A stretch of 35,225 nucleotides of DNA. Origin: Chloroflexota bacterium (lineage in GTDB: Bacteria > Chloroflexota > Limnocylindria > Limnocylindrales > CSP1-4). The stretch spans positions 1-35,225 of the forward strand of contig SCTE01000249.1 in assembly GCA_004298915.1 (NCBI GenBank), written 5' to 3'. Shown piece after piece: positions 293-29,800 of the stretch. Position 1 is the first letter of the stretch. Each line of letters begins with the position of its first letter. A program made the position numbers and the translations under genes. The notes below the pieces were generated by a model. It was given only the letters and a program-made list of their open reading frames with translations, made no database searches and was not told the origin of the DNA.

Positions 293-1597
293 ATGTTCCT
301 TGACAGCGTGAAGATCCTGGTTCGTGCCGGCGCCGGTGGCGATGGCGCGGCCACGTTCCGCCAGGAGGCCCATGTTCCCCGCGGCGGTCCGGACGGCGGT
401 GATGGCGGACGCGGTGGAACGATCCACCTGGCCGTCGATCCTGGGCAGACGACCTTGCGGGACTTCTCGTATCGCCATCACTTCCGAGCCGATTCCGGCG
501 GCCGTGGCTCCCGTGCCCGTCGTCATGGCAAGGCCGGGACCGACCTGGTCCTTGCCGTTCCACCCGGGACCGCGGTCTACGACGATGCCACCGGCGAGCT
601 CATCGCGGACCTCGTGGCCACTGGCCAGACGGCGATGGTTGCCCGGGGCGGCCGCGGCGGTCTTGGCAACACGCACTTCAAGACGTCCACCCACCAGGCC
701 CCGAAGCATGCCCAGAAGGGAGAGCCTGGAGAGGAGCGCTGGGTGCGCCTGGAGCTCCGGCTCATCGCCGATATCGGCCTCGTCGGCCTCCCGAACGCCG
801 GAAAGTCCACCCTCCTCGCGGCGCTGACCGCGGCCCGTCCGAAGATCGCCGACTACCCGTTCACCACCCTCGAGCCGAACCTCGGCGTCATGGATCTCGG
901 CATGGAGGACCGGCGCCTGCCGACCATTGCCGATGTCCCCGGCCTCATCGAGGGCGCCAGCGAGGGGGCCGGCCTCGGCCACGCGTTCCTGCGCCACATC
1001 GAGCGGACGCGGGTGCTCGTGCACCTCGTCGATGGCGCCGGCCGCGACCCCGAATGGGACCACCAGGTGATCCGGGACGAGCTGGAGGCACACGATCCGG
1101 CACTCCTCGAGAAACCCATGCTGATCGCGTTCAACAAGATGGACCTCCCGGCCGCGGCCGATGCATGGCCCGCCTTCCGGGCGGCCCGAGCGCGCGACGG
1201 CATTCCCACGGTTGCGATCGCCGCGGCCGCCGGCACCGGCCTTGACGAGCTCCAGGCCGCGCTCGCCACCCTCCTGCCCACGGCAGAGACGCTCGCCGAA
1301 CCACCGGAACCCACGGGCGTGGTGGTCCATCGGATCGACACGCTCGACGACGGGTTCGGGGTCGAGCGCGATGCGGATGGCGGGTACCGCGTTCGCGGGC
1401 GTCGGGTCGAACGCCTGGCCGCCCAGACGAACTTCGATGTCGAGGAATCAACCGAGCGGTTCCAGCGCGACCTGGCTCGCCTCGGCGTGGACGCCGAACT
1501 GCGACGGGCCGGCGTCGAGCCCGGCGACGTGGTCCGGTTCGGGGAGATCGAGCTCGAGTGGAGCGGCGAGGCCTGGTCGGCCGAGCGATGGGCATGA
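293..1597 (+). CDS. obg: GTPase Obg/CgtA
   Basis: The N-terminus MFLDSVKILVRAGAGGDGAATFRQEAHVPRGGPDGGDGGRGG is the Obg fold. The G-domain motifs GLPNAGKST, DVPGLIEGA and NKMD are present, and there is a C-terminal OCT-like domain. The ATG at 293 is preferred over the track start at 254. Confidence 0.95.
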   Translation: MFLDSVKILVRAGAGGDGAATFRQEAHVPRGGPDGGDGGRGGTIHLAVDPGQTTLRDFSYRHHFRADSGGRGSRARRHGKAGTDLVLAVPPGTAVYDDATGELIADLVATGQTAMVARGGRGGLGNTHFKTSTHQAPKHAQKGEPGEERWVRLELRLIADIGLVGLPNAGKSTLLAALTAARPKIADYPFTTLEPNLGVMDLGMEDRRLPTIADVPGLIEGASEGAGLGHAFLRHIERTRVLVHLVDGAGRDPEWDHQVIRDELEAHDPALLEKPMLIAFNKMDLPAAADAWPAFRAARARDGIPTVAIAAAAGTGLDELQAALATLLPTAETLAEPPEPTGVVVHRIDTLDDGFGVERDADGGYRVRGRRVERLAAQTNFDVEESTERFQRDLARLGVDAELRRAGVEPGDVVRFGEIELEWSGEAWSAERWA

Positions 1598-2292
1598 TCG
1601 TCGGCCCGGCTCCCACGGGTTCGGGCCCGCGAACCGTTGGCGTGATGGGCGGCACATTCGACCCGATTCACCTCGGCCATCTCGCGGTTGCCGAGGAGGC
1701 CCGAGAGGCGCTCGGCCTGCGGACCATCCTGTTCGTACCTGCGGGCGTCCCGCCCCACAAGCCCCAGGGAGCAGTGGCGTCGACCGAGGACCGCGTCGCC
1801 ATGGTCGCGCTGGCCATTGCCGGGAATCCCTCCTTCGCCCTGAGCCGGGTCGACGTTGATCGATCCGGGCCGTCGTATACGAGCGAGAGCATGGCCCTGC
1901 TGCGCCGGGCCATGCTCGATGACGTCGAAGCCGGCGGGGACGGATCCGCACCCTTGGAGGCGGATCCGATTCGCCTGACCCTGATCATGTCGACCGAGAC
2001 GCTCGCCGGCCTTCCCGACTGGCGCAACCCGCGGCGGCTCCTGGAGGAGTGTCGCGTCGCCGTCGTCCCACGGGAGGGGCACGCCCCGCCGAAGCGCGCC
2101 TGGCTTGCCCGGCACTTCCCGGGGCTTGAAGGCCGGTTCGACCTCCTCGCGGGACCCCGCCTCGGGATCTCGTCCACGGAAATCCGCGATCGGGTTGCCG
2201 CGGGGCGCTCCATCCGCTATCTCGTCCCGGACGCGGTCGAGCGGTATATCACCGATCATCACCTGTACGCTCGCGCCTTTGGCGCCAGCTGA
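1588..2292 (+). CDS. nadD: nicotinate-nucleotide adenylyltransferase
   Basis: GVMGGTFDPIHLGHL (HxGH nucleotidyltransferase motif), FVPAGVPPHKP and ISSTEIR. The ATG at 1588 or 1594 overlaps the obg stop (ATGA at 1594-1597). The order obg-nadD-rsfS is conserved. Confidence 0.9.
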   Translation: MGMIVGPAPTGSGPRTVGVMGGTFDPIHLGHLAVAEEAREALGLRTILFVPAGVPPHKPQGAVASTEDRVAMVALAIAGNPSFALSRVDVDRSGPSYTSESMALLRRAMLDDVEAGGDGSAPLEADPIRLTLIMSTETLAGLPDWRNPRRLLEECRVAVVPREGHAPPKRAWLARHFPGLEGRFDLLAGPRLGISSTEIRDRVAAGRSIRYLVPDAVERYITDHHLYARAFGAS

Positions 2293-21669: not shown

Positions 21670-22776
21670 ATGAAAGGACCGTCTGTGACCAAGCGCCGCA
21701 TCGTCGCGAACGTGCTCATCGCGTCCGCCATCGCCGTCACGCTCGTCGGCATCGGGCTCATCTCGAAGAACCGAGATGCGCTCACGGCCCAGGCCACCGG
21801 CTCGCCCGGCGTACCCACGGACTCGACGTCCGTCCCGACGCCCAGCCTGACTGCCACCGCGTCCGGATCACCGCTCGAGACGCCGAGTTCCACGTCGAGT
21901 GCGGGCGAGCCGACCTCGCCACCCGAAACCACGAAGCCGGGTCGGACGCCCGGTCCCACGCCGCCGCCAACACCGAAGCCCGCGGCATGGCCGGCGATCG
22001 GCCACATCTACACGATCGTCATGGAGAACGAGGAGGCAACCTCGATCATCGGCAGCGCCAAGGCGCCGTACATCAACAGCCTTGCGGCCACCTACGGGCT
22101 CGCGGCGAACTTCACGGCCGTGGCGCATCCGTCCGAACCGAACTACGTCGCGATGTTCTCGGGCTCGACGCAGGGTGTGACCGACGACGCCACGCACACG
22201 TTCACCAAGGTGGCCAACCTCGCCGACCAGATCGAGGCCTCCGGGCGCGACTGGCATGTCGCGGCGCAGAACGTGAAGCTCGAGTGCTTCGCCGGGACCT
22301 CGTCGTCGGGCGGAGCGGACGGCGCCGGAACGTACGTTCGCAAGCACGAGCCGGCCATCATGTTCAGCCAGATCGCCTCGAACCCTGGCCGCTGCGCCAA
22401 GATCACCGACTTCACCCACTTCGATCCGAACCTGGGCAACTACTGGTTCATCGCCCCGAACCTGTGCAACGACATGCATGACTGTCCGATTGCAACGGGC
22501 GACGCCTTCCTGAGGTCGTTCCTGCCGACGATCCTCGACTCGGCCGCGTTCAGGAAGGACGGCCTGATCTTCCTGACCTTCGACGAGGGGTCGTCGAAGA
22601 AGGGCGGCGGCGGCGAGGTCGTCACGGTCGTCATCAGCCCGAAGGGCAAGGCCGGGTACGTCTCGAACGTCGCCTACAACCACTACTCGGTGCTGCGAAC
22701 GATCGAGACGCTCTGGAAGATGCCCTGCCTCGCCAACGCCTGCAAGGCCGCGCCCATGCGGGACATGTTCCGCTGA
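21670..22776 (+). CDS. phosphoesterase-family protein (acid phosphatase / phospholipase C-like), membrane-anchored with a Pro/Thr linker
   Basis: An N-terminal TM segment and PT-rich linker are followed by IYTIVMENEEA...APYINSLA...HPSEPNYVAMFSGSTQG...FIAPNLCNDMHDC...LTFDEG, typical of the phosphoesterase family. An alternative start is GTG at 21685. Confidence 0.75.
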   Translation: MKGPSVTKRRIVANVLIASAIAVTLVGIGLISKNRDALTAQATGSPGVPTDSTSVPTPSLTATASGSPLETPSSTSSAGEPTSPPETTKPGRTPGPTPPPTPKPAAWPAIGHIYTIVMENEEATSIIGSAKAPYINSLAATYGLAANFTAVAHPSEPNYVAMFSGSTQGVTDDATHTFTKVANLADQIEASGRDWHVAAQNVKLECFAGTSSSGGADGAGTYVRKHEPAIMFSQIASNPGRCAKITDFTHFDPNLGNYWFIAPNLCNDMHDCPIATGDAFLRSFLPTILDSAAFRKDGLIFLTFDEGSSKKGGGGEVVTVVISPKGKAGYVSNVAYNHYSVLRTIETLWKMPCLANACKAAPMRDMFR

Positions 22777-22978: not shown

Positions 22979-23007
22979 TTGATTCATTCGAACAGATGTT
23001 CGATACT
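22979..23007 (+). promoter_or_regulatory. LexA (SOS) box TCGAACAGATGTTCGA inside the imuA' promoter (-35 TTGATT, 17-bp spacer, -10 GATACT)
   Basis: The box at 22988-23003 is a perfect palindrome matching the actinobacterial consensus TCGAAC-N4-GTTCGA. The -10 ends 9 nt before the ATG at 23017, so the mRNA is leaderless or nearly so. Confidence 0.8.
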
Positions 23008-24192: not shown

Positions 24193-25213
24193 TCGGGCGT
24201 CCATCGAGGCCGCCTTCGAGGCGCTCGCGACGTTCAGCCCGGCGATTGCCGGATCAGCCGATCCCGCGGACCAGGCATTCGGCCTGCTCGAGGCCCAGAT
24301 CGACGGCCTCGAGCTCCTGTGGGGCCCGGAGCCGGTCCTCGTCGAACGGATCGGCGCGAAGCTGGCGCCGATCCTCGCCGGGCGGCCCCGCAACGGCATT
24401 GCCGGGACGCGCTTCGCGGCGATGGTCGCGGCGGCGACCGCGGAGCCCGGGGCGTTGATGTCCGTGCCCCCCGGCGGGGAAGCAGCCTTCCTGGCGCCGA
24501 TGCCGACCGGGCTGCTGACCCAGGATGCCGAGATCCGGGCCCGCCTGCGGCGCTTCGGGCTGCGCCGGATCGGGCAGGTTGCCGAGCTCGCCGCGTCCGC
24601 GCTCGTGGCCAGGTTCGGGGAGGAAGGCGCCCGGATCGGGGCCCGGGCCCGGGGCGAGGAGACCGATCCCTTCCGGCCGCGCCGGGCCCCCGAGCGATTG
24701 CTCCTGGCCCTCCCGATCGAGCCGCCGGTCGCGGAGCTGGAGGCCGTCCGGTTCGTGCTGCGACGGATCGCCACCGCGCTTGCCGCGAACCTCGCGGCCC
24801 GCGGCCTTGCGGCCGCGCGCGGGCAGGTCCGCCTGGAGCTGGATCTCGCCTTCGCCCGCGCGGGGACACGCGGCGAGGTGATCATCCAGGCGCGGTTCCC
24901 CGAGCCGACCGCCGATGCGGAGGCGATCGAGCGGCTGCTCCTGGCGCACCTCGAGCGGACCCCACCCCCGGCCCCGGTCGCCCGCCTGGAGCTCGAGCTG
25001 TCCGGTGCCGAGCCGGCCGAGGGTCAGCAGCTGCCGCTGTTCATCCCGCAGGCCCTGCGCGGCGCACGGCTGCGCTGGCAACTTGCCCGATTGGCGATGA
25101 CCTATGGCGAGGATCGCGTTCGCAGCGTGGTCATCACGGACCCGGAAGCGCCGCTGTCCGAGAATCGCTGGGCCTGGCGGGCGGTGGCAGGCGCGGGCGG
25201 GCCCCTCCGATGA
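23954..25213 (+). CDS. imuB: ImuB, Y-family-polymerase-like mutasome subunit
   Basis: MQLLHCYRPHLLLDL...VLDADPAARHLGVRRGMPLGSA...LEAQIDGLELLWG resembles the DinB fold but lacks the catalytic acidic N-terminal motif. The position is typical for imuB. Confidence 0.85.
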   Translation: MQLLHCYRPHLLLDLTRQRRASGSWPAGPIVLGGQPWGAGTVLDADPAARHLGVRRGMPLGSAHRLAPEATFLDPEPEADRASIEAAFEALATFSPAIAGSADPADQAFGLLEAQIDGLELLWGPEPVLVERIGAKLAPILAGRPRNGIAGTRFAAMVAAATAEPGALMSVPPGGEAAFLAPMPTGLLTQDAEIRARLRRFGLRRIGQVAELAASALVARFGEEGARIGARARGEETDPFRPRRAPERLLLALPIEPPVAELEAVRFVLRRIATALAANLAARGLAAARGQVRLELDLAFARAGTRGEVIIQARFPEPTADAEAIERLLLAHLERTPPPAPVARLELELSGAEPAEGQQLPLFIPQALRGARLRWQLARLAMTYGEDRVRSVVITDPEAPLSENRWAWRAVAGAGGPLR

Positions 25214-25458
25214 CGAGGCTCCTTCATGCGCACCCGGCCATCGAGCCGGAACTCGATGGTGGTGGTGCGCTCGTGGCCATCCGCTGGGCGGGTCGCCGGG
25301 AGCCCGTCGAGGTCTGCAATCGCTGGCGGGTCGAGGAGACCTGGTGGCGCGAGCCGATCGCGCGGGACTATTTCAAGGTCGTCGGAACGCGCTGGCTCGC
25401 GCTCATCTACTACGACCGCGTCAGCGGCTCATGGCACCTGGAGCGGCTCTACGACTGA
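25210..25458 (+). CDS. small Trp/Arg-rich conserved-looking protein (82 aa) translationally coupled to imuB
   Basis: The ATG at 25210 overlaps the imuB TGA (ATGA). The product is MTRLLHAHPAIEPELDGGGALVAIRWAGRREPVEVCNRWRVEETWWREPIARDYFKVVGTRWLALIYYDRVSGSWHLERLYD. It may belong to a catalogued DUF (I recall DUF6504). That assignment is unverified. Confidence 0.65.
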   Translation: MTRLLHAHPAIEPELDGGGALVAIRWAGRREPVEVCNRWRVEETWWREPIARDYFKVVGTRWLALIYYDRVSGSWHLERLYD

Positions 25459-25503: not shown

Positions 25504-25602
25504 TCAGTGGGTCGGCACGAGCACCGTCGTCAGGAACAGCATCACGAACAACCCGACCACGAACACCAACGCCCCGACATCGCGCGGCTGAGCCGTCTGC
25601 AC
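25504..25602 (-). CDS. small single-TM peptide (32 aa); not in the ORF track
   Basis: GGAG-N7-GTG (25602). The peptide is MQTAQPRDVGALVFVVGLFVMLFLTTVLVPTH*. About 30 of 32 codons end in G or C. It shares an RD[VI].GA[LV] start-of-TM motif with the 25742-25846 peptide. Confidence 0.4.
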   Translation of the reverse strand: MQTAQPRDVGALVFVVGLFVMLFLTTVLVPTH

Positions 25603-25741
25603 CAAACATCTCCCCGATCGCCGTCGAACCGGTCCCGGTCGGTTCGCCCGAAGGAGTGTAGCTGCGAATCGCACATCGTGCGAGCGAAAAATTCAGCCGA
25701 TGGAACGCCCGTTCGAAGTCTCGAGGTCCGATGCCCCTCCG

Positions 25742-25846
25742 TCAGGCCGCTGCCTGCCAGGCCGAGTAGAAGAGGATGGCCACCAGGCCGATCAACACGG
25801 CCGTCAGGAGCACAGCGCCGATGATGTCCCTGGCCCTGATTTCCAA
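25742..25846 (-). CDS. small single-TM peptide (34 aa); not in the ORF track
   Basis: GAGGAG-N7-TTG (25846), 18 nt after the lipoprotein stop. The peptide is MEIRARDIIGAVLLTAVLIGLVAILFYSAWQAAA*. About 31 of 34 codons end in G or C. Confidence 0.45.
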   Translation of the reverse strand: MEIRARDIIGAVLLTAVLIGLVAILFYSAWQAAA

Positions 25847-25864
25847 TGCGGATCTCCTCTGCGA

Positions 25865-26461
25865 TCAGCCCGTGAACGGACACCCGGCGCCGTACAGGAT
25901 CGACACGATCGTACTGCTCCCGAGGGGCATGACCGTGACCCGCACCTGGCAGGCGGGATGGATGTCGACCCCCGAGAGTTCGAGGCTGCCGTCCTCGCGA
26001 GGCCCAGACGCGCCCACGATGATCCAGCCGGCCCCCTGGAGCGCGGTCTGGTAGAAGTTCATGACGGCACCGGGCTCGGCCGCTCCCGCGTCGAGTGTCG
26101 CGCTGGCCGGGCCGGCTCCGGTCTCGGTCGGATGCGCACCCGGGTACGTCGGAAAGCCCGTCGGGAGTCCGTCCCAGATGCGTCCCCAATCGGTATCCGT
26201 CTGTCCGGGCATCGTCGGCGCGGCGGTGGCGCCGGGCTCCGTCGGGACGGGCGTGAGCTCGGCCGTGGGTTCCGCGAGCGACGGCACCGGCGATAGCGAC
26301 TGGGTCGACGTCGGCCCAGGGGTGCCCTGCACGGTGGAACAGCCGGCGACCAGGCACGCCGTCAGGCCGATGACCGCAAGGGCGTGGACAGCGCTGGGCC
26401 GGGGGCGTCGCCTCGCCGCCTGCGCGGACAGGCGAGGACTGATCGGGTAGGGCGGCTGCAC
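25865..26461 (-). CDS. hypothetical lipoprotein
   Basis: A signal peptide with a positive n-region and lipobox (RRRPRPSAVHALAVIGLTACLVAGCS) is followed by a Pro/Thr linker and a ~110-aa domain (MNFYQTALQGAGWIIVG...). Confidence 0.7.
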   Translation of the reverse strand: MQPPYPISPRLSAQAARRRPRPSAVHALAVIGLTACLVAGCSTVQGTPGPTSTQSLSPVPSLAEPTAELTPVPTEPGATAAPTMPGQTDTDWGRIWDGLPTGFPTYPGAHPTETGAGPASATLDAGAAEPGAVMNFYQTALQGAGWIIVGASGPREDGSLELSGVDIHPACQVRVTVMPLGSSTIVSILYGAGCPFTG

Positions 26462-26627
26462 GGGGGAATCCTACCCCGAGCGTGGCAGGACCCCGCCGCC
26501 CCCAGATGCGACGGGGTCCTGTGCGTGGTCCGATCACCTGCTCACCAGGTGCCGGCCGATCGGTGACCGGCGTGGTACCGATCCCCGAGCCTCACCCCGG
26601 CTCTGCGCCGGAGCGGTGCTTTCGAGT

Positions 26628-26759
26628 TCAGGTTCCGGTCTGGGCTGCCAGGGCCGCCGGGAGGAGGACGAGGATCAGGAGACTCACGATGGCGATCATC
26701 GCGACGATCCTCGTCAGGACGGCGGCAAGGCTGCGAAACGAACGGAAGCCTGTTTCCAC
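26628..26759 (-). CDS. small single-TM peptide (43 aa from GTG 26759; up to 61 aa if GTG 26813)
   Basis: METGFRSFRSLAAVLTRIVAMIAIVSLLILVLLPAALAAQTGT*. About 36 of 43 codons end in G or C. It is transcribed divergently from dnaE2. The start codon is uncertain and the SD is weak. Confidence 0.35.
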   Translation of the reverse strand: METGFRSFRSLAAVLTRIVAMIAIVSLLILVLLPAALAAQTGT

Positions 26760-26808
26760 GGCCCTTCTGACGCCACCGGGCGACAAGTTGTTGCGTCGCC
26801 GGGCGAAC

Positions 26809-26837
26809 TTCACGGTATCGAACAGATGTTCTATACT
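26809..26837 (+). promoter_or_regulatory. LexA (SOS) box TCGAACAGATGTTCTA inside the dnaE2 promoter (-35 TTCACG, 17-bp spacer, -10 TATACT)
   Basis: The box is at 26818-26833. The 20-nt stretch TCGAACAGATGTTC[G/T]ATACT is 19/20 identical to the imuA' promoter element, and the box sits at the same position relative to the -10. Confidence 0.75.
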
Positions 26838-26874: not shown

Positions 26875-29800
26875 GTGGCTCAATTCCCGTACGCGGAGCT
26901 CCACTGTCACTCCAACTTCTCGTTCCTCGACGGGGCGTCGCCGGTCGAGGACCTGGTGGCACGGGCAGTCGAGCTCGGCCTGACCGGCCTCGGGATCACC
27001 GACCACCTCGGCCTGTATGGCGTGGTCCGATTTGCGGCGGCAGCCGAGGCGGCAGGCCTCCACCCGGTCATCGGAGTGGAAGTCGAGCTGCTCGACGCCG
27101 TCGTCGCCGATCCCTCAGGGGTCGTGGTCCCGGGTCGCCGGGCTGCGCGCCGCGGACGCCCGCCTGCAACCACGTCGATGGCTCCGTTCGACGTGATCGG
27201 TGCGGCCGGGGCCGTCGAGGGCCTGCCTGCGCGGCGGCGACCGGAGCGTGCCAGGCCCCCCGGCCATCGAGCGATCGTGAAGGAGGACCTGCGAGGGATC
27301 GGGGAACGCCAGCGGGGCCCGCATCTCGTGCTGCTGGCCCGGGACGCGACCGGGTACCGGAGCCTGTGCCGTCTCGTGTCCCATGCCAACCTGGCCGGCA
27401 CCAAGCGCGTGCCGCGGTTCAGCCAGGCGCTCCTCGCCGAGCATGCCGAGGGTCTCGTGGCGCTGTCCGGCTGCCGGGACGGCGAGATCGCCCGGCGACT
27501 CCTGGTGGGAGACCGCGCGGGGGCACGGGCGGCGGCGGAGCGGTATGCGAGGATCTTCGGGGGGAGCGGCGGCTCGCGTGTCCGGGCCGGCACTTCCGGG
27601 GACGGGCCCGCCACGAGCGGCTTCTTCCTCGAGCTGTCCCATCACCTGCTCCCCGACGACGACTGGCTCGTCGCCGAGACGGCGTCGCTCGCCGCCGACA
27701 TCGGGCTGCCCGTCGTCACCACGAACGACGTCCACCACGCCCGGGCCGAGGATCGCGAGCTCGGCGACGTCCTGACGGCCATCGCGCATGGGCGGACGCT
27801 CGACACGCTCGCCGACCTGCGCCGGCCGAACGGGGAATCGCACCTCAAGTCGGGTGCGGACCTCATGGCGATGCCGCCGGGGGACGCGGCCTTCGCGCGG
27901 GCGGACCCTGCGACGGCCAGGGCCTGGGTCGAGGGGATGGGCAATGCCGTCGAGGTCGCGGCCTCGTGCACCGTCGACCTCGGGTTCGAGCGGTATCGCT
28001 TCCCGGGCTTCCCGGTGCCCGCCGGGGAGACGGCGTTCAGCTATCTCGTCGAGCTCTGCCAGGCCGGCGTCCGTCGCCGCTACCACCCGGTCTCGCCGCC
28101 GGTCGTCCGGCAGCTCGCCCACGAGCTCGATGTCGTCGAGAAGACCGGGCTCGCCGAGTTCTTCCTGATCTGCTGGGACCTGATGCGCTTCGCGAAGGAG
28201 CGGGGGATCCCGGCCCAGGGCCGGGGCAGCGCCGCGGATTCGATCATCGCCTATGCCCTCGGGATCACCCGGGTCGATCCGATCCGCCACAACCTGCTGT
28301 TCGAGCGGTTCATCAACGAGGGCCGGACGACGTACCCGGACGTGGACATCGACTTCTCCTCGGAGCGGCGGGAGGAGGTCATCCAGTACGTCTATCAGCG
28401 CTACGGCCCGGAGCACACGGGGATGGTCTGCAACCTCGTCACGTACCGGGCGCGATCCGCCGTCCGCGAGGTCGGCTATGCGCTGGGGTTCCCGCGGCCG
28501 CTGGTCGATCGGGTGGCCAAGGCGCTCGAGACGTACGACAGCGTGATGGTGCGGCGGGACCTCGAGGCGGATGGGGGATTCGCGGACTTCTTCCGTCGAC
28601 CGGGGGACGAGGGGAGTGGCGGCGCCGCTGGCGAGGCGGTCGCGGCAGCAGCGGCACGAACCGGGGAGCGCGGCCTGACCGATCGGATGGGCCAACTCAA
28701 CGTGCGACGCGGTGGAGTGCCCCGTCCGGCCGGCGCGGGGAGCGGCGGGCGTGCCGTGCCCGGGGCCGTGCCGAGGGGCCGGCCCGAGGTTGTGCCCGGG
28801 GCCGTGCCGGTGGGCCGACCCGAAGTTGTGCCCGGGGCCGTGCCGGGTCGCCGGCCCGAGGGCGTGCCCGGGGCCGTGCCGGGTCGCCGGCCCGGACTTG
28901 GCCAAACGAACATCCCCGGATTACTGGGCAGCGAACAGGCGGCAACCAGGCCCGGCAGCTCCCCGGGCCTGGCCGAAATCATCCCGGCGGGAGCGTGGCT
29001 CGGGACAAATCCTGCCGGGCAGGACGGGGAGTCGGGGCACGGTGGGGGCTCGGTGCTGCCCAGCGATCCCCCGGTGGTAGTACGGCAGGAAGTTGCGGCC
29101 CAGATCGCTCCTACCACGGCCGCGGCCCCCGCCTCGCCGTCCCGGGCCGGCCCGGGGCCGCCGGTTGCCGCCGGCAGCGGCCACCGCGGCGGCACTTGGG
29201 CCATGGCCGCGGGATCCAAGCCGTCCATTCGAGCGGGTGGCGTGTCGGACGACAAGGGTGGCCCGGGCGATTCGCCGGCGAGCGTGGCGTGGCTGGAGTC
29301 GGGGCGTGGCACGGGATACGGGTCGGGTAGCGGGGATGGCCGCGGAGCGGGGCCGGCGTCCGTGGCGCCCGGCACGGTCGATGGCCGCGCGATCGATCCC
29401 GAATCGGGAGCAGTGGCGCCGCCCACGAGGCGCACGGATCGCCTGGGGCGGCCGCATCGCTGGGACCCGCCCGCGCCGCCGACGCACGGGATGGGCCGCG
29501 GGGGAGCGGGCCCTGGTGCCGCCGCGAGTGCCGCGGCCGGCGCGCCGCAGAGTTCCGTGGCGCGCGTGGAGCCCGAAGTGCCGGCCCACCCCCGTGGCGG
29601 GAGCACGATCGGGATGTCCGACTGGGAGCGCTGGCTCGAGTTCTGCGCCCGGATCGACGGGTTCCCGCGGCACCTCAGCATCCATTCCGGCGGGATGCTC
29701 GTGACGGCTGCCCCGCTCATCGACATCGCACCGCTGGAGCGCGCGACGATGAAGGACCGCGTCGTCGTCCAATTCGACAAGCGCGACGTCGAGACGCTCA

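Follow-up and report, generated by a model that had tools for sequence, protein, structure and literature searches.

A putative microprotein-plus-RNA module inside the mutagenesis cassette of Limnocylindrales Chloroflexota

Genes of the locus

We analyzed a DNA stretch of 35,225 nucleotides (nt) from Chloroflexota bacterium (assembly GCA_004298915.1, contig SCTE01000249.1, positions 1 to 35,225), hereafter called the window, and more specifically a cluster of small minus-strand genes located in its imuA'-imuB/dnaE2 cassette. The contig belongs to a fragmented metagenome-assembled genome (2.58 Mb, 80% complete, 71% G+C). On the plus strand, imuA' (RecA-like) is followed by imuB, by an 82-amino acid (aa) open reading frame (ORF) overlapping the imuB stop codon, and by dnaE2, which begins at a GTG in position 26875. 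Between the 82-aa ORF and dnaE2, the minus strand carries four ORFs, in the order pep43 (26628..26759), a lipoprotein gene (25865..26461), pep34 (25742..25846), and pep32 (25504..25602), the latter being convergent with the 82-aa ORF. All four had been proposed in a preliminary description of this DNA, made from the sequence without database searches, and a sequence check placed them at exactly the same coordinates. Taken together, our comparisons indicate that the locus is a conserved, undescribed module of microproteins and RNA.

Two sets of relatives were used. A DNA search of 40 relatives, together with fetched loci, yielded 24 loci from the same genus, and the family-wide comparison covered about 40 loci from more than 12 genera of one Limnocylindrales family. 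Below, fetched loci are labeled L0xx, genomes G0xx, and genera of the same family by g-numbers.

Three conserved membrane microproteins

Judging from base composition, a 40-codon open frame arises by chance about half the time at this G+C. As chance open frames are this common at 71% GC, comparative evidence was required. Third-position G+C is 0.80, 0.86, 0.89, and 0.91 in the four ORFs; the 84-94% initially given for the peptides agrees broadly with these values but is slightly high for pep43. Each small ORF encodes one hydrophobic stretch (best 19-residue hydropathy windows of 2.87-2.96 across the three peptides) with Arg-rich residues N-terminal of the helix, in line with their description as transmembrane peptides, and the three frames are conserved among relatives. 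Within the genus, the frame is intact at 20 of the 24 loci for pep43, 10 for pep34, and 11 for pep32, with start codons (GTG, ATG, or TTG) and stops at identical aligned positions, and the frames are also found in other genera.

The preliminary description had suggested examining the three frames in relatives together with their pattern of synonymous substitution. The frames proved intact, and many invariant residues show codon variation that is synonymous only. The pooled ratio of nonsynonymous to synonymous polymorphism (pN/pS) is 0.79 for pep43, 0.61 for pep34, and 0.42 for pep32, versus 0.97-2.0 when the same sequences are read one or two bases out of frame. In a six-frame comparison, the proposed frame has the highest amino acid identity and the mildest replacements for all three peptides, the mean BLOSUM62 score of replacements being -0.18, -0.22, and +0.27 in the proposed frames versus -0.25 to -1.66 in the other five. 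Insertions and deletions are multiples of three in 47% of cases inside the ORF versus 13-17% outside, which is suggestive, although the nucleotide alignment is noisy. From these comparisons, pep43, pep34, and pep32 appear to be genuine, conserved single-pass membrane microproteins of 43, 34, and 32 aa.

Longer starts, which would give a 61-aa pep43 and a 56-aa pep32, were rejected. Relatives show stops or another frame in the upstream parts, and the short forms (43 and 32 aa) are thus the conserved products. In addition, the extension of the 61-aa version holds the promoter-like motif described below. Similarly, the 70 conserved nt upstream of pep32 were rejected as coding, as their frame differs among species and they hold a -10 element and a 5' hairpin. 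Searches of Pfam and NCBIfam returned nothing significant for the four minus-strand proteins, with no NCBIfam match up to an expectation value (E) of 1; pep34 has three sub-threshold Pfam matches (E 0.04-0.38).

In the window, pep43 consists of an Arg-rich N-terminus, a helix ending in LLILVLLPAALAA, and a tail of four residues. Its size ranges from 39 to 45 aa in relatives, and residues R17, L28, I29, L30, V31, L33, P34, and A35 are invariant across the genus. A metagenomic profile search matched at least 899 predicted proteins; the best 120 homologues are mostly 39-45 aa long, all unnamed or annotated as hypothetical, and none has a Pfam domain. This helix-centered conservation, very strong also across genera, would suit a subunit or regulator docking on a conserved membrane protein more than it would suit a toxin that forms pores. 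The same helix also ends a 46-65-aa paralogue (..ILVLLPAAIAAQ..) in some species of the genus (L072-L075, e.g. G012:C43:148660-148752), and in at least one locus (L072) this paralogue lies just upstream of a gene whose product resembles YGGT membrane proteins (Pfam E 1.4e-4, which does not reach the cut-off). As for relations among the peptides, pep34 and pep32 do share the RD..GA motif noticed earlier, in the form (R)xRD(V/I)(x)GA at the helix entry with an alignment that needs a one-residue gap. Their proposed paralogy received a probability of just 53% in a profile comparison and is to be regarded as possible rather than established. pep43 is unrelated to pep32 and pep34.

Distribution and modularity of the cluster

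The cluster lies between the imuA'-imuB-82-aa ORF segment and dnaE2 in nearly all of the approximately 40 loci, a position that is ancestral to the whole family. pep43 was detected in 80 of 158 sampled genomes of the family, representing 18 of 32 genera, whereas no match was found in 42 sister-family genomes (of about 1.1 Mb). Among 301 Chloroflexota genomes, no other family had it except for one weak match inside a 716-aa frame. dnaE2 is present in 16 of the 20 loci fetched around pep43 matches in other genera. In most of these dnaE2 loci, pep43 is located directly across a GAAC-N4-GTTC box from dnaE2, and the lipoprotein gene and pep32 usually lie between pep43 and the 82-aa ORF/imuB; in L044, about 200 nt separate pep43 from the LexA box. 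pep32 was found in 77 of the 158 family genomes, 1-2.6 kb from pep43 wherever both occur. In genus g3, where the pep43 profile mostly fails, a lipoprotein gene, pep34, pep32, and a diverged pep43-like tail are found between the same flanks.

The composition of the cluster varies. pep43 stands alone in a 350-nt gap in L012 and L017, and L005 has all three peptides without the lipoprotein. L016, L019, and L045 carry pep43 and pep34 only; conversely, L006 and L022 have the lipoprotein without pep43. Cluster components have thus been gained and lost independently, and as peptides occur without the lipoprotein and vice versa, they are not obligate companions of it. The earlier suggestion that they are lipoprotein accessory peptides does not hold as a rule, since each peptide occurs without the lipoprotein, and the reverse. 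Two further arrangements were observed: in L013 and L014 (G004 and G017), a multi-pass membrane protein of about 150 aa without Pfam match replaces pep34 and pep32, and in L020 (G003:C65), all that is left of pep43 is an in-frame stretch of 24 codons without the helix core, with the promoter-like motif still in place.

Among neighboring genes, the 82-aa ORF coupled to imuB (25210-25458, plus strand) encodes a Trp-rich protein with 72-94% identity within the genus, present in nearly all family loci examined, for which neither Pfam nor NCBIfam gave a match at E up to 1.

A promoter-like motif adjoining pep43

A bipartite motif, (C/T)G(C/A)AACA-N16-(C/G)GTC(T/A), is found upstream of pep43 in 34 of 39 loci, where it ends 4-8 nt before the start codon. 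Its span is constant (28 nt) and the sequence of its spacer is unconstrained, a combination expected of a two-part protein-binding site. In the window, the motif (26767..26795, minus strand) reads CGCAACA-N14-GGCGTCAG from 26795 to 26767, with a -35-like GCAACA and a -10-like CGTCAG, and ends 7 nt before the GTG of pep43. In Streptomyces coelicolor, validated promoters of sigE targets include CGCAAC-N17-GGTCTA and GGCAAC-N17-CGTCTA, with the format xGxAAC-N17-CGTCTx (PMC6767563). The pep43 motif has the corresponding features, namely a -35 element with AAC and a -10 element with CGT(C), 16-17 nt apart and adjoining a gene, and from this format we infer a promoter for a sigma factor of the extracytoplasmic function (ECF) class, i.e. 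of the envelope-stress type. As the -10-like element is so near the start codon, the pep43 mRNA would be leaderless or nearly so, which would in turn explain why no consistent Shine-Dalgarno sequence precedes pep43.

The same motif occurs upstream of pep32 in five loci (L004, L018, L035, L042, and L046), and where another gene is inserted between the LexA box and pep43 (see below), the motif stays beside pep43. In its strict form, it was found genome-wide at pep43 only, and no wider regulon was detected in this fragmented genome. Another candidate -10 element for pep43 (TAnnnT), flanking the LexA box, was rejected: it is present in about half of the genus, not in other genera, and partly belongs to an extended palindrome. 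A generic sigma-70 scan of the locus returned the dnaE2 promoter only (TTCACG-17-TATACT, 26809..26837, plus strand), the spacer of which is filled by the LexA box GAACAGATGTTC (26820-26831); no canonical terminator was found in the locus.

A structured RNA directly after pep43

The preliminary description missed one element of the locus, a structured RNA located 3' of pep43. About 150 nt directly following the pep43 stop (26477..26627, minus strand) are conserved family-wide, with four consecutive predicted hairpins: P1 (26626-26584), P2 (26583-26558), P3 (26557-26527), and P4 (26521-26486). The apical part of P3, CCUGGUGAGCRGG, is near-invariant, and its GGUGAGC core is invariant. P4, GGACCCCGUCGC...GCGRCGGGGUCC, is terminator-like, without a U-run. 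The computed fold energy is -91.6 kcal/mol (z-score -5.3) on the minus strand versus -79.1 (z-score -3.1) on the opposite strand.

Covariation was evaluated for the two 3' hairpins in 27 sequences from 10 genera. Cells are paired in 93% of cases, and 16 of the 24 pairs show compensatory changes, affecting both sides. The covariation score reaches 0.44, versus 0.06-0.07 when pairing partners are slid, and none of 500 shuffles attained it. Moreover, one pair is U-G in 22 of the 27 sequences and another alternates between U-A and U-G, which establishes that the RNA strand is the peptide strand. A covariance model found exactly one copy in the genome, detected the element in 23 of 44 sampled family members, and gave, elsewhere in the class, two weak matches only; wherever pep43 coordinates are also available, the RNA lies just 3' of pep43. 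No family was found in Rfam, where the only matches (three, at E up to 5) are at chance level and none falls at the hairpins. These results point to a well-supported new RNA motif without Rfam counterpart. Complements of the invariant P3 loop are not enriched in the genome (35 versus 39 in the control).

In genome G046, only 12 codons of a decayed pep43 frame are left, while the RNA hairpins persist. This persistence suggests that the RNA element may have a role of its own. Two loci carry the RNA without a recognizable pep43 ORF, L070 (G046:C6) and L071 (G067:C89), the latter with no LexA box in the fetched 5 kb.

Lipoprotein-pep34 and pep32 units

The second gene of the cluster had been described as encoding a lipobox lipoprotein, and the comparison with its homologues bears this out: the signal peptide of the 198-aa ORF ends in the lipobox LVAGC, of the pattern [LVI][ASTVI][GAS]C, and the lipobox cysteine, Cys41, is conserved in at least 90% of 47 homologues. 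Overall, 179 homologues were found, almost all unnamed. The lipobox is followed by a Pro/Thr-rich linker and by a 110-aa alpha/beta domain with two conserved cysteines; the structural model has a predicted local distance difference test score (pLDDT) of 81, exceeding 90 over the 110-aa domain. The protein is an envelope lipoprotein. Structural resemblance to Flpp3, MTC28, LpqN, DcrB, and PsbP-like proteins is weak (best E 0.007), and we rejected a functional assignment from the fold because these matches are too weak.

A -10-like hexamer, TAGGAT (26468..26473, minus strand), is located 6 nt before the lipoprotein start. In several relatives, TAGGAT, TAGCAT, or TACGAT is found 6-7 nt before the start, the distance being longer or unclear in some, and this position suggests that the lipoprotein mRNA is leaderless. 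The terminator-like hairpin, then TAGGAT, separate the pep43 unit from the lipoprotein gene. pep34 begins 18 nt after the lipoprotein stop with GAGGAG-N7-TTG, exactly as first reported (Shine-Dalgarno sequence GAGGAG at 25859-25854), and is probably co-transcribed with the lipoprotein gene. The GGAG-N7-GTG start of pep32 was likewise recovered, within GGGGAG at 25615-25610. Upstream of it, the predicted promoter and leader of pep32 (25623..25660, minus strand) comprise a conserved TAnnnT hexamer as -10 element (TACACT in the window, 25660-25655), followed by a 5' stem-loop, GCGAACCG..CGGTTCGAC (25647-25623), and then by GGGGAG.

LexA boxes around the cluster

lexA is present in the genome, with a GAAC-N4-GTTC box, GAACACCCGTTC, at its own start. 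Exact GAAC-N4-GTTC boxes occur 54 times in 2.58 Mb, an average of one per 48 kb, and three of the 54 are found within 3.8 kb at the cassette: at 22990 ahead of imuA', at 25703 ahead of pep32, and at 26820 (the dnaE2 box). A fourth exact box in the window, GAACGTACGTTC (22328-22339), lies inside a 368-aa ORF (21670-22776), upstream of a tRNA-like stretch and imuA'. Elsewhere in the genome, the 4-kb recA locus has no exact box and two single-mismatch matches, which is about chance level. The box GAACACCCGTTC is located between lexA and a divergent gene (G000 contig C208, locus L055, about 1430-1862, plus strand), whose product is a YkvA-like membrane protein (DUF1232, Pfam E 8e-10). In Gram-positive bacteria, the gene divergent from lexA is usually an SOS division inhibitor.

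The dnaE2 box is conserved in nearly all relatives, and dnaE2 is certainly under LexA control. Read on the minus strand, the same 12-mer, GAACATCTGTTC (26831 to 26820), ends 60 nt before the pep43 GTG, in agreement, within 1 nt, with the 59 nt reported earlier, and lies 25 nt upstream of the -35-like element. Within the genus, the box is 47-48 or 58-60 nt from the pep43 start in most of the 17 loci where a box was found upstream. In other genera, the distance is variable and tens of nt longer, reaching about 1.7 kb in three. In these three cases (L047, L051, and L052, from g5, g26, and g14), a gene for a secreted glycosyl hydrolase of family 18 (GH18; about 505-550 aa, Pfam PF00704, E 2e-25) directly follows the box and, sharing the strand of pep43, separates the two; its product could be an SOS-linked cell-wall hydrolase. 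Since the box distance varies up to 1.7 kb, LexA repression of pep43 cannot be the conserved logic of the locus, although it is possible in this genus.

The box upstream of pep32, GAACGGGCGTTC (25703..25714), is located 112 nt from the pep32 GTG. In five species of the genus, an exact box is found at -111 to -113; its central tetramer takes three forms (GGGC, ACTC, and GATC), a pattern that speaks for selection acting on the half-sites. Two species have a box with one mismatch, while the box is absent in seven of the 14 species of the genus and was not found in any other genus whose loci were examined. With about 42 nt separating it from the -10 hexamer and about 60 nt from the predicted start site, both downstream, the box does not occupy a classical repressing position. 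Direct SOS control of the peptides is plausible in this genome but is not ancestral. The SOS link that had been put forward survives in part, as a plausible but weak one: the position inside the cassette is conserved, lexA is present, and boxes lie nearby, whereas LexA control of pep43 is not conserved and, at pep32, only this genome and a few sister species have a box. The more specific proposal of SOS-linked membrane toxins resembling TisB or DinQ fares worse, as pep43 has its own promoter-like element, a variable distance to the box, and no similarity to TisB or DinQ.

Three independent units or SOS effectors?

The explanation that we favor, with a probability of roughly 0.5, is that the minus strand carries three independent transcription units for envelope products, ancestral in the family. 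In the first unit, pep43, with its N-terminus in the cytoplasm, would be transcribed from the ECF-sigma-type promoter as a leaderless or near-leaderless mRNA, the 3' part of which (about 150 nt) would fold into the four hairpins, the last one acting as a terminator. The second unit would combine the leaderless-type lipoprotein gene with the coupled pep34, and the third would be pep32 with its own promoter, 5' stem-loop, and strong ribosome-binding site. Most likely, pep43 uses its near-invariant helix to bind a conserved membrane protein and modulate it, the way in which small regulatory membrane proteins usually act; pep32 and pep34 would be similar small membrane modulators. LexA operators near pep43 and pep32 could add damage-dependence in this genus, as a lineage-specific overlay rather than as part of the core logic.

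Several points weigh against this explanation. The genes of ECF sigma factors are usually autoregulated and would carry the motif themselves, yet it was found within 500 nt upstream of none of 24 sigma-70-family genes of this incomplete genome, so that no cognate ECF sigma factor was found, and a loose version of the motif is not enriched genome-wide (17 matches versus 16 in the control). Alternatively, the motif may serve as a binding site for some other regulator. In some bacteria, leaderless translation starts only weakly at GTG. Three LexA-type boxes in 3.8 kb argue that damage control could matter more than we propose. Finally, the pN/pS of pep43 and the conservation of its core codons at the nucleotide level suggest that constraint may partly be on the RNA.

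The first alternative, which we hold to be possible but on balance unlikely, is that the peptides are SOS-induced membrane effectors. LexA would repress pep43 through the operator shared with dnaE2 and pep32 through its own box; after damage, the peptides would block division, as SidA, SosA, and YneA do, or depolarize the membrane, as TisB and DinQ do. In many bacteria, the damage checkpoint relies on a small membrane-bound inhibitor (PMC6051672, PMC6851548), and no other candidate inhibitor was seen here. The clustering of boxes at the cassette, the box of lexA itself, the spacing between box and pep43, fixed at 47-48 or 58-60 nt in most of the 17 loci of the genus with such a box, and the recurrence of the pep32 box in five species with three spacers all fit such effectors. 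Nevertheless, beyond the genus the box drifts away from pep43, which always has the ECF-type motif next to it, seven of the 14 species of the genus and all other sampled genera lack the box at pep32, and both boxes lie upstream of the predicted -35 regions instead of over the promoters. Nor is there homology to known SOS peptides or any indication of an antisense partner, the conserved RNA structure being on the sense strand. Type I toxins are usually poorly conserved, and the pep43 helix is nearly invariant.

A combined scheme can also be conceived, in which pep43 and its RNA, placed back-to-back with the dnaE2 promoter, form a dual-function stress module whose position couples envelope stress (through an ECF sigma factor) with DNA damage (through LexA), the peptide halting division or remodeling the membrane while the error-prone polymerase works, and the RNA serving as a separate regulatory small RNA. 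A separate role for the RNA would explain its survival where the ORF has decayed, but the scheme as a whole strikes us as speculative and distinctly unlikely.

It is very doubtful that the peptides are membrane partners of the lipoprotein (in anchoring, maturation, or signaling) working only with it. The close coupling of pep34 to the lipoprotein gene, with its good ribosome-binding site, the co-occurrence of the four genes in many loci, and the weak likeness of the lipoprotein domain to Flpp3, MTC28, LpqN, and DcrB would suit this role. Against it stand the two loci with pep43 alone, the four with peptides and no lipoprotein, and the two with the lipoprotein and no pep43, as well as the terminator-like hairpin and separate promoter elements that divide the units. 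Last and least probable, the pep43 region might mainly be an RNA gene of about 280 nt whose ORF is incidental, secondary, or at most part of a dual function, as the nucleotide-level conservation of its core codons, its pN/pS of only 0.79, the decayed frame of G046, and the presence of the RNA in the g6 genomes G046 and G067, where the peptide profile matched nothing, would allow, but this is highly unlikely given that about 35 loci keep the same start and stop positions, that translation in this frame is better conserved than in the other five, with conservative hydrophobic replacements, that several invariant residues vary at synonymous sites only, and that a longer paralogue carries the same helix.

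Comparison with known systems

Limnocylindrales Chloroflexota are abundant uncultured bacteria of soil and freshwater. The locus adds three unannotated microprotein families, that of pep43 being the one with at least 899 metagenomic members, and a new RNA motif that is consistently associated with the ImuA'-ImuB-DnaE2 mutasome. Should one of the peptides respond to DNA damage, it would be the first candidate checkpoint effector in Chloroflexota. No division inhibitor is recognized in the lineage studied here.

SOS-induced small membrane division inhibitors provide one comparison (PMC6051672, PMC6851548, PMC4211646, PMC13396833). SidA of Caulobacter, SosA of Staphylococcus aureus, and YneA of Bacillus subtilis are of the same very small single-pass membrane type; as in these systems, pep43 lies beside a LexA-controlled gene and has a strongly conserved helix suited to a membrane partner. 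For inhibitors of this type, the partner is the FtsW/FtsI/FtsN machinery, and binding to it blocks septation. Unlike them, pep43 has no extracellular domain and no sequence similarity to any of the three, and it is not divergent from lexA as in the Gram-positive type, that place being occupied by the DUF1232 gene. Further differences are that the LexA box does not lie over the predicted pep43 promoter and that pep43 comes with a predicted ECF-type promoter and a structured RNA on its 3' side.

The TisB/IstR-1 and DinQ/AgrB systems of E. coli, which are type I toxin-antitoxin pairs controlled by LexA, also combine a nearby SOS box with hydrophobic peptides about 30-40 aa long and highly structured mRNAs, and the three peptides, each with a single helix and under about 60 aa, match this type in size and hydrophobicity. 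A LexA operator overlapping the promoter, another feature of these systems, was not seen for pep43 or pep32. In contrast to TisB and DinQ, the pep43 mRNA would lack a long 5' leader, being leaderless-like, and the gene is family-wide, single-copy, and without homology to either; there is no evidence of an antisense or divergent small RNA, the conserved structure being that of the sense strand.

AcrZ, KdpF, CydX, and MgtS are small membrane proteins that bind larger complexes. The peptides resemble them in size, in having a single helix, and in the concentration of conservation in that helix; unlike them, they have no neighboring candidate partner gene, and no homology links the two groups.

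Finally, the locus can be compared with members of ECF regulons, such as those of sigE in S. coelicolor and of sigW and sigM in B. subtilis. Small membrane proteins and lipoproteins dominate ECF envelope-stress regulons, and the cluster shares with these both the promoter format and the combination of small membrane proteins with a lipoprotein. It differs in that the motif search detected no regulon here and in its unusual location at a mutasome locus. ECF-sigma envelope-stress promoters are nonetheless the best formal match, and, if this assignment is correct, the locus would represent envelope-stress genes embedded in a mutagenesis cassette.

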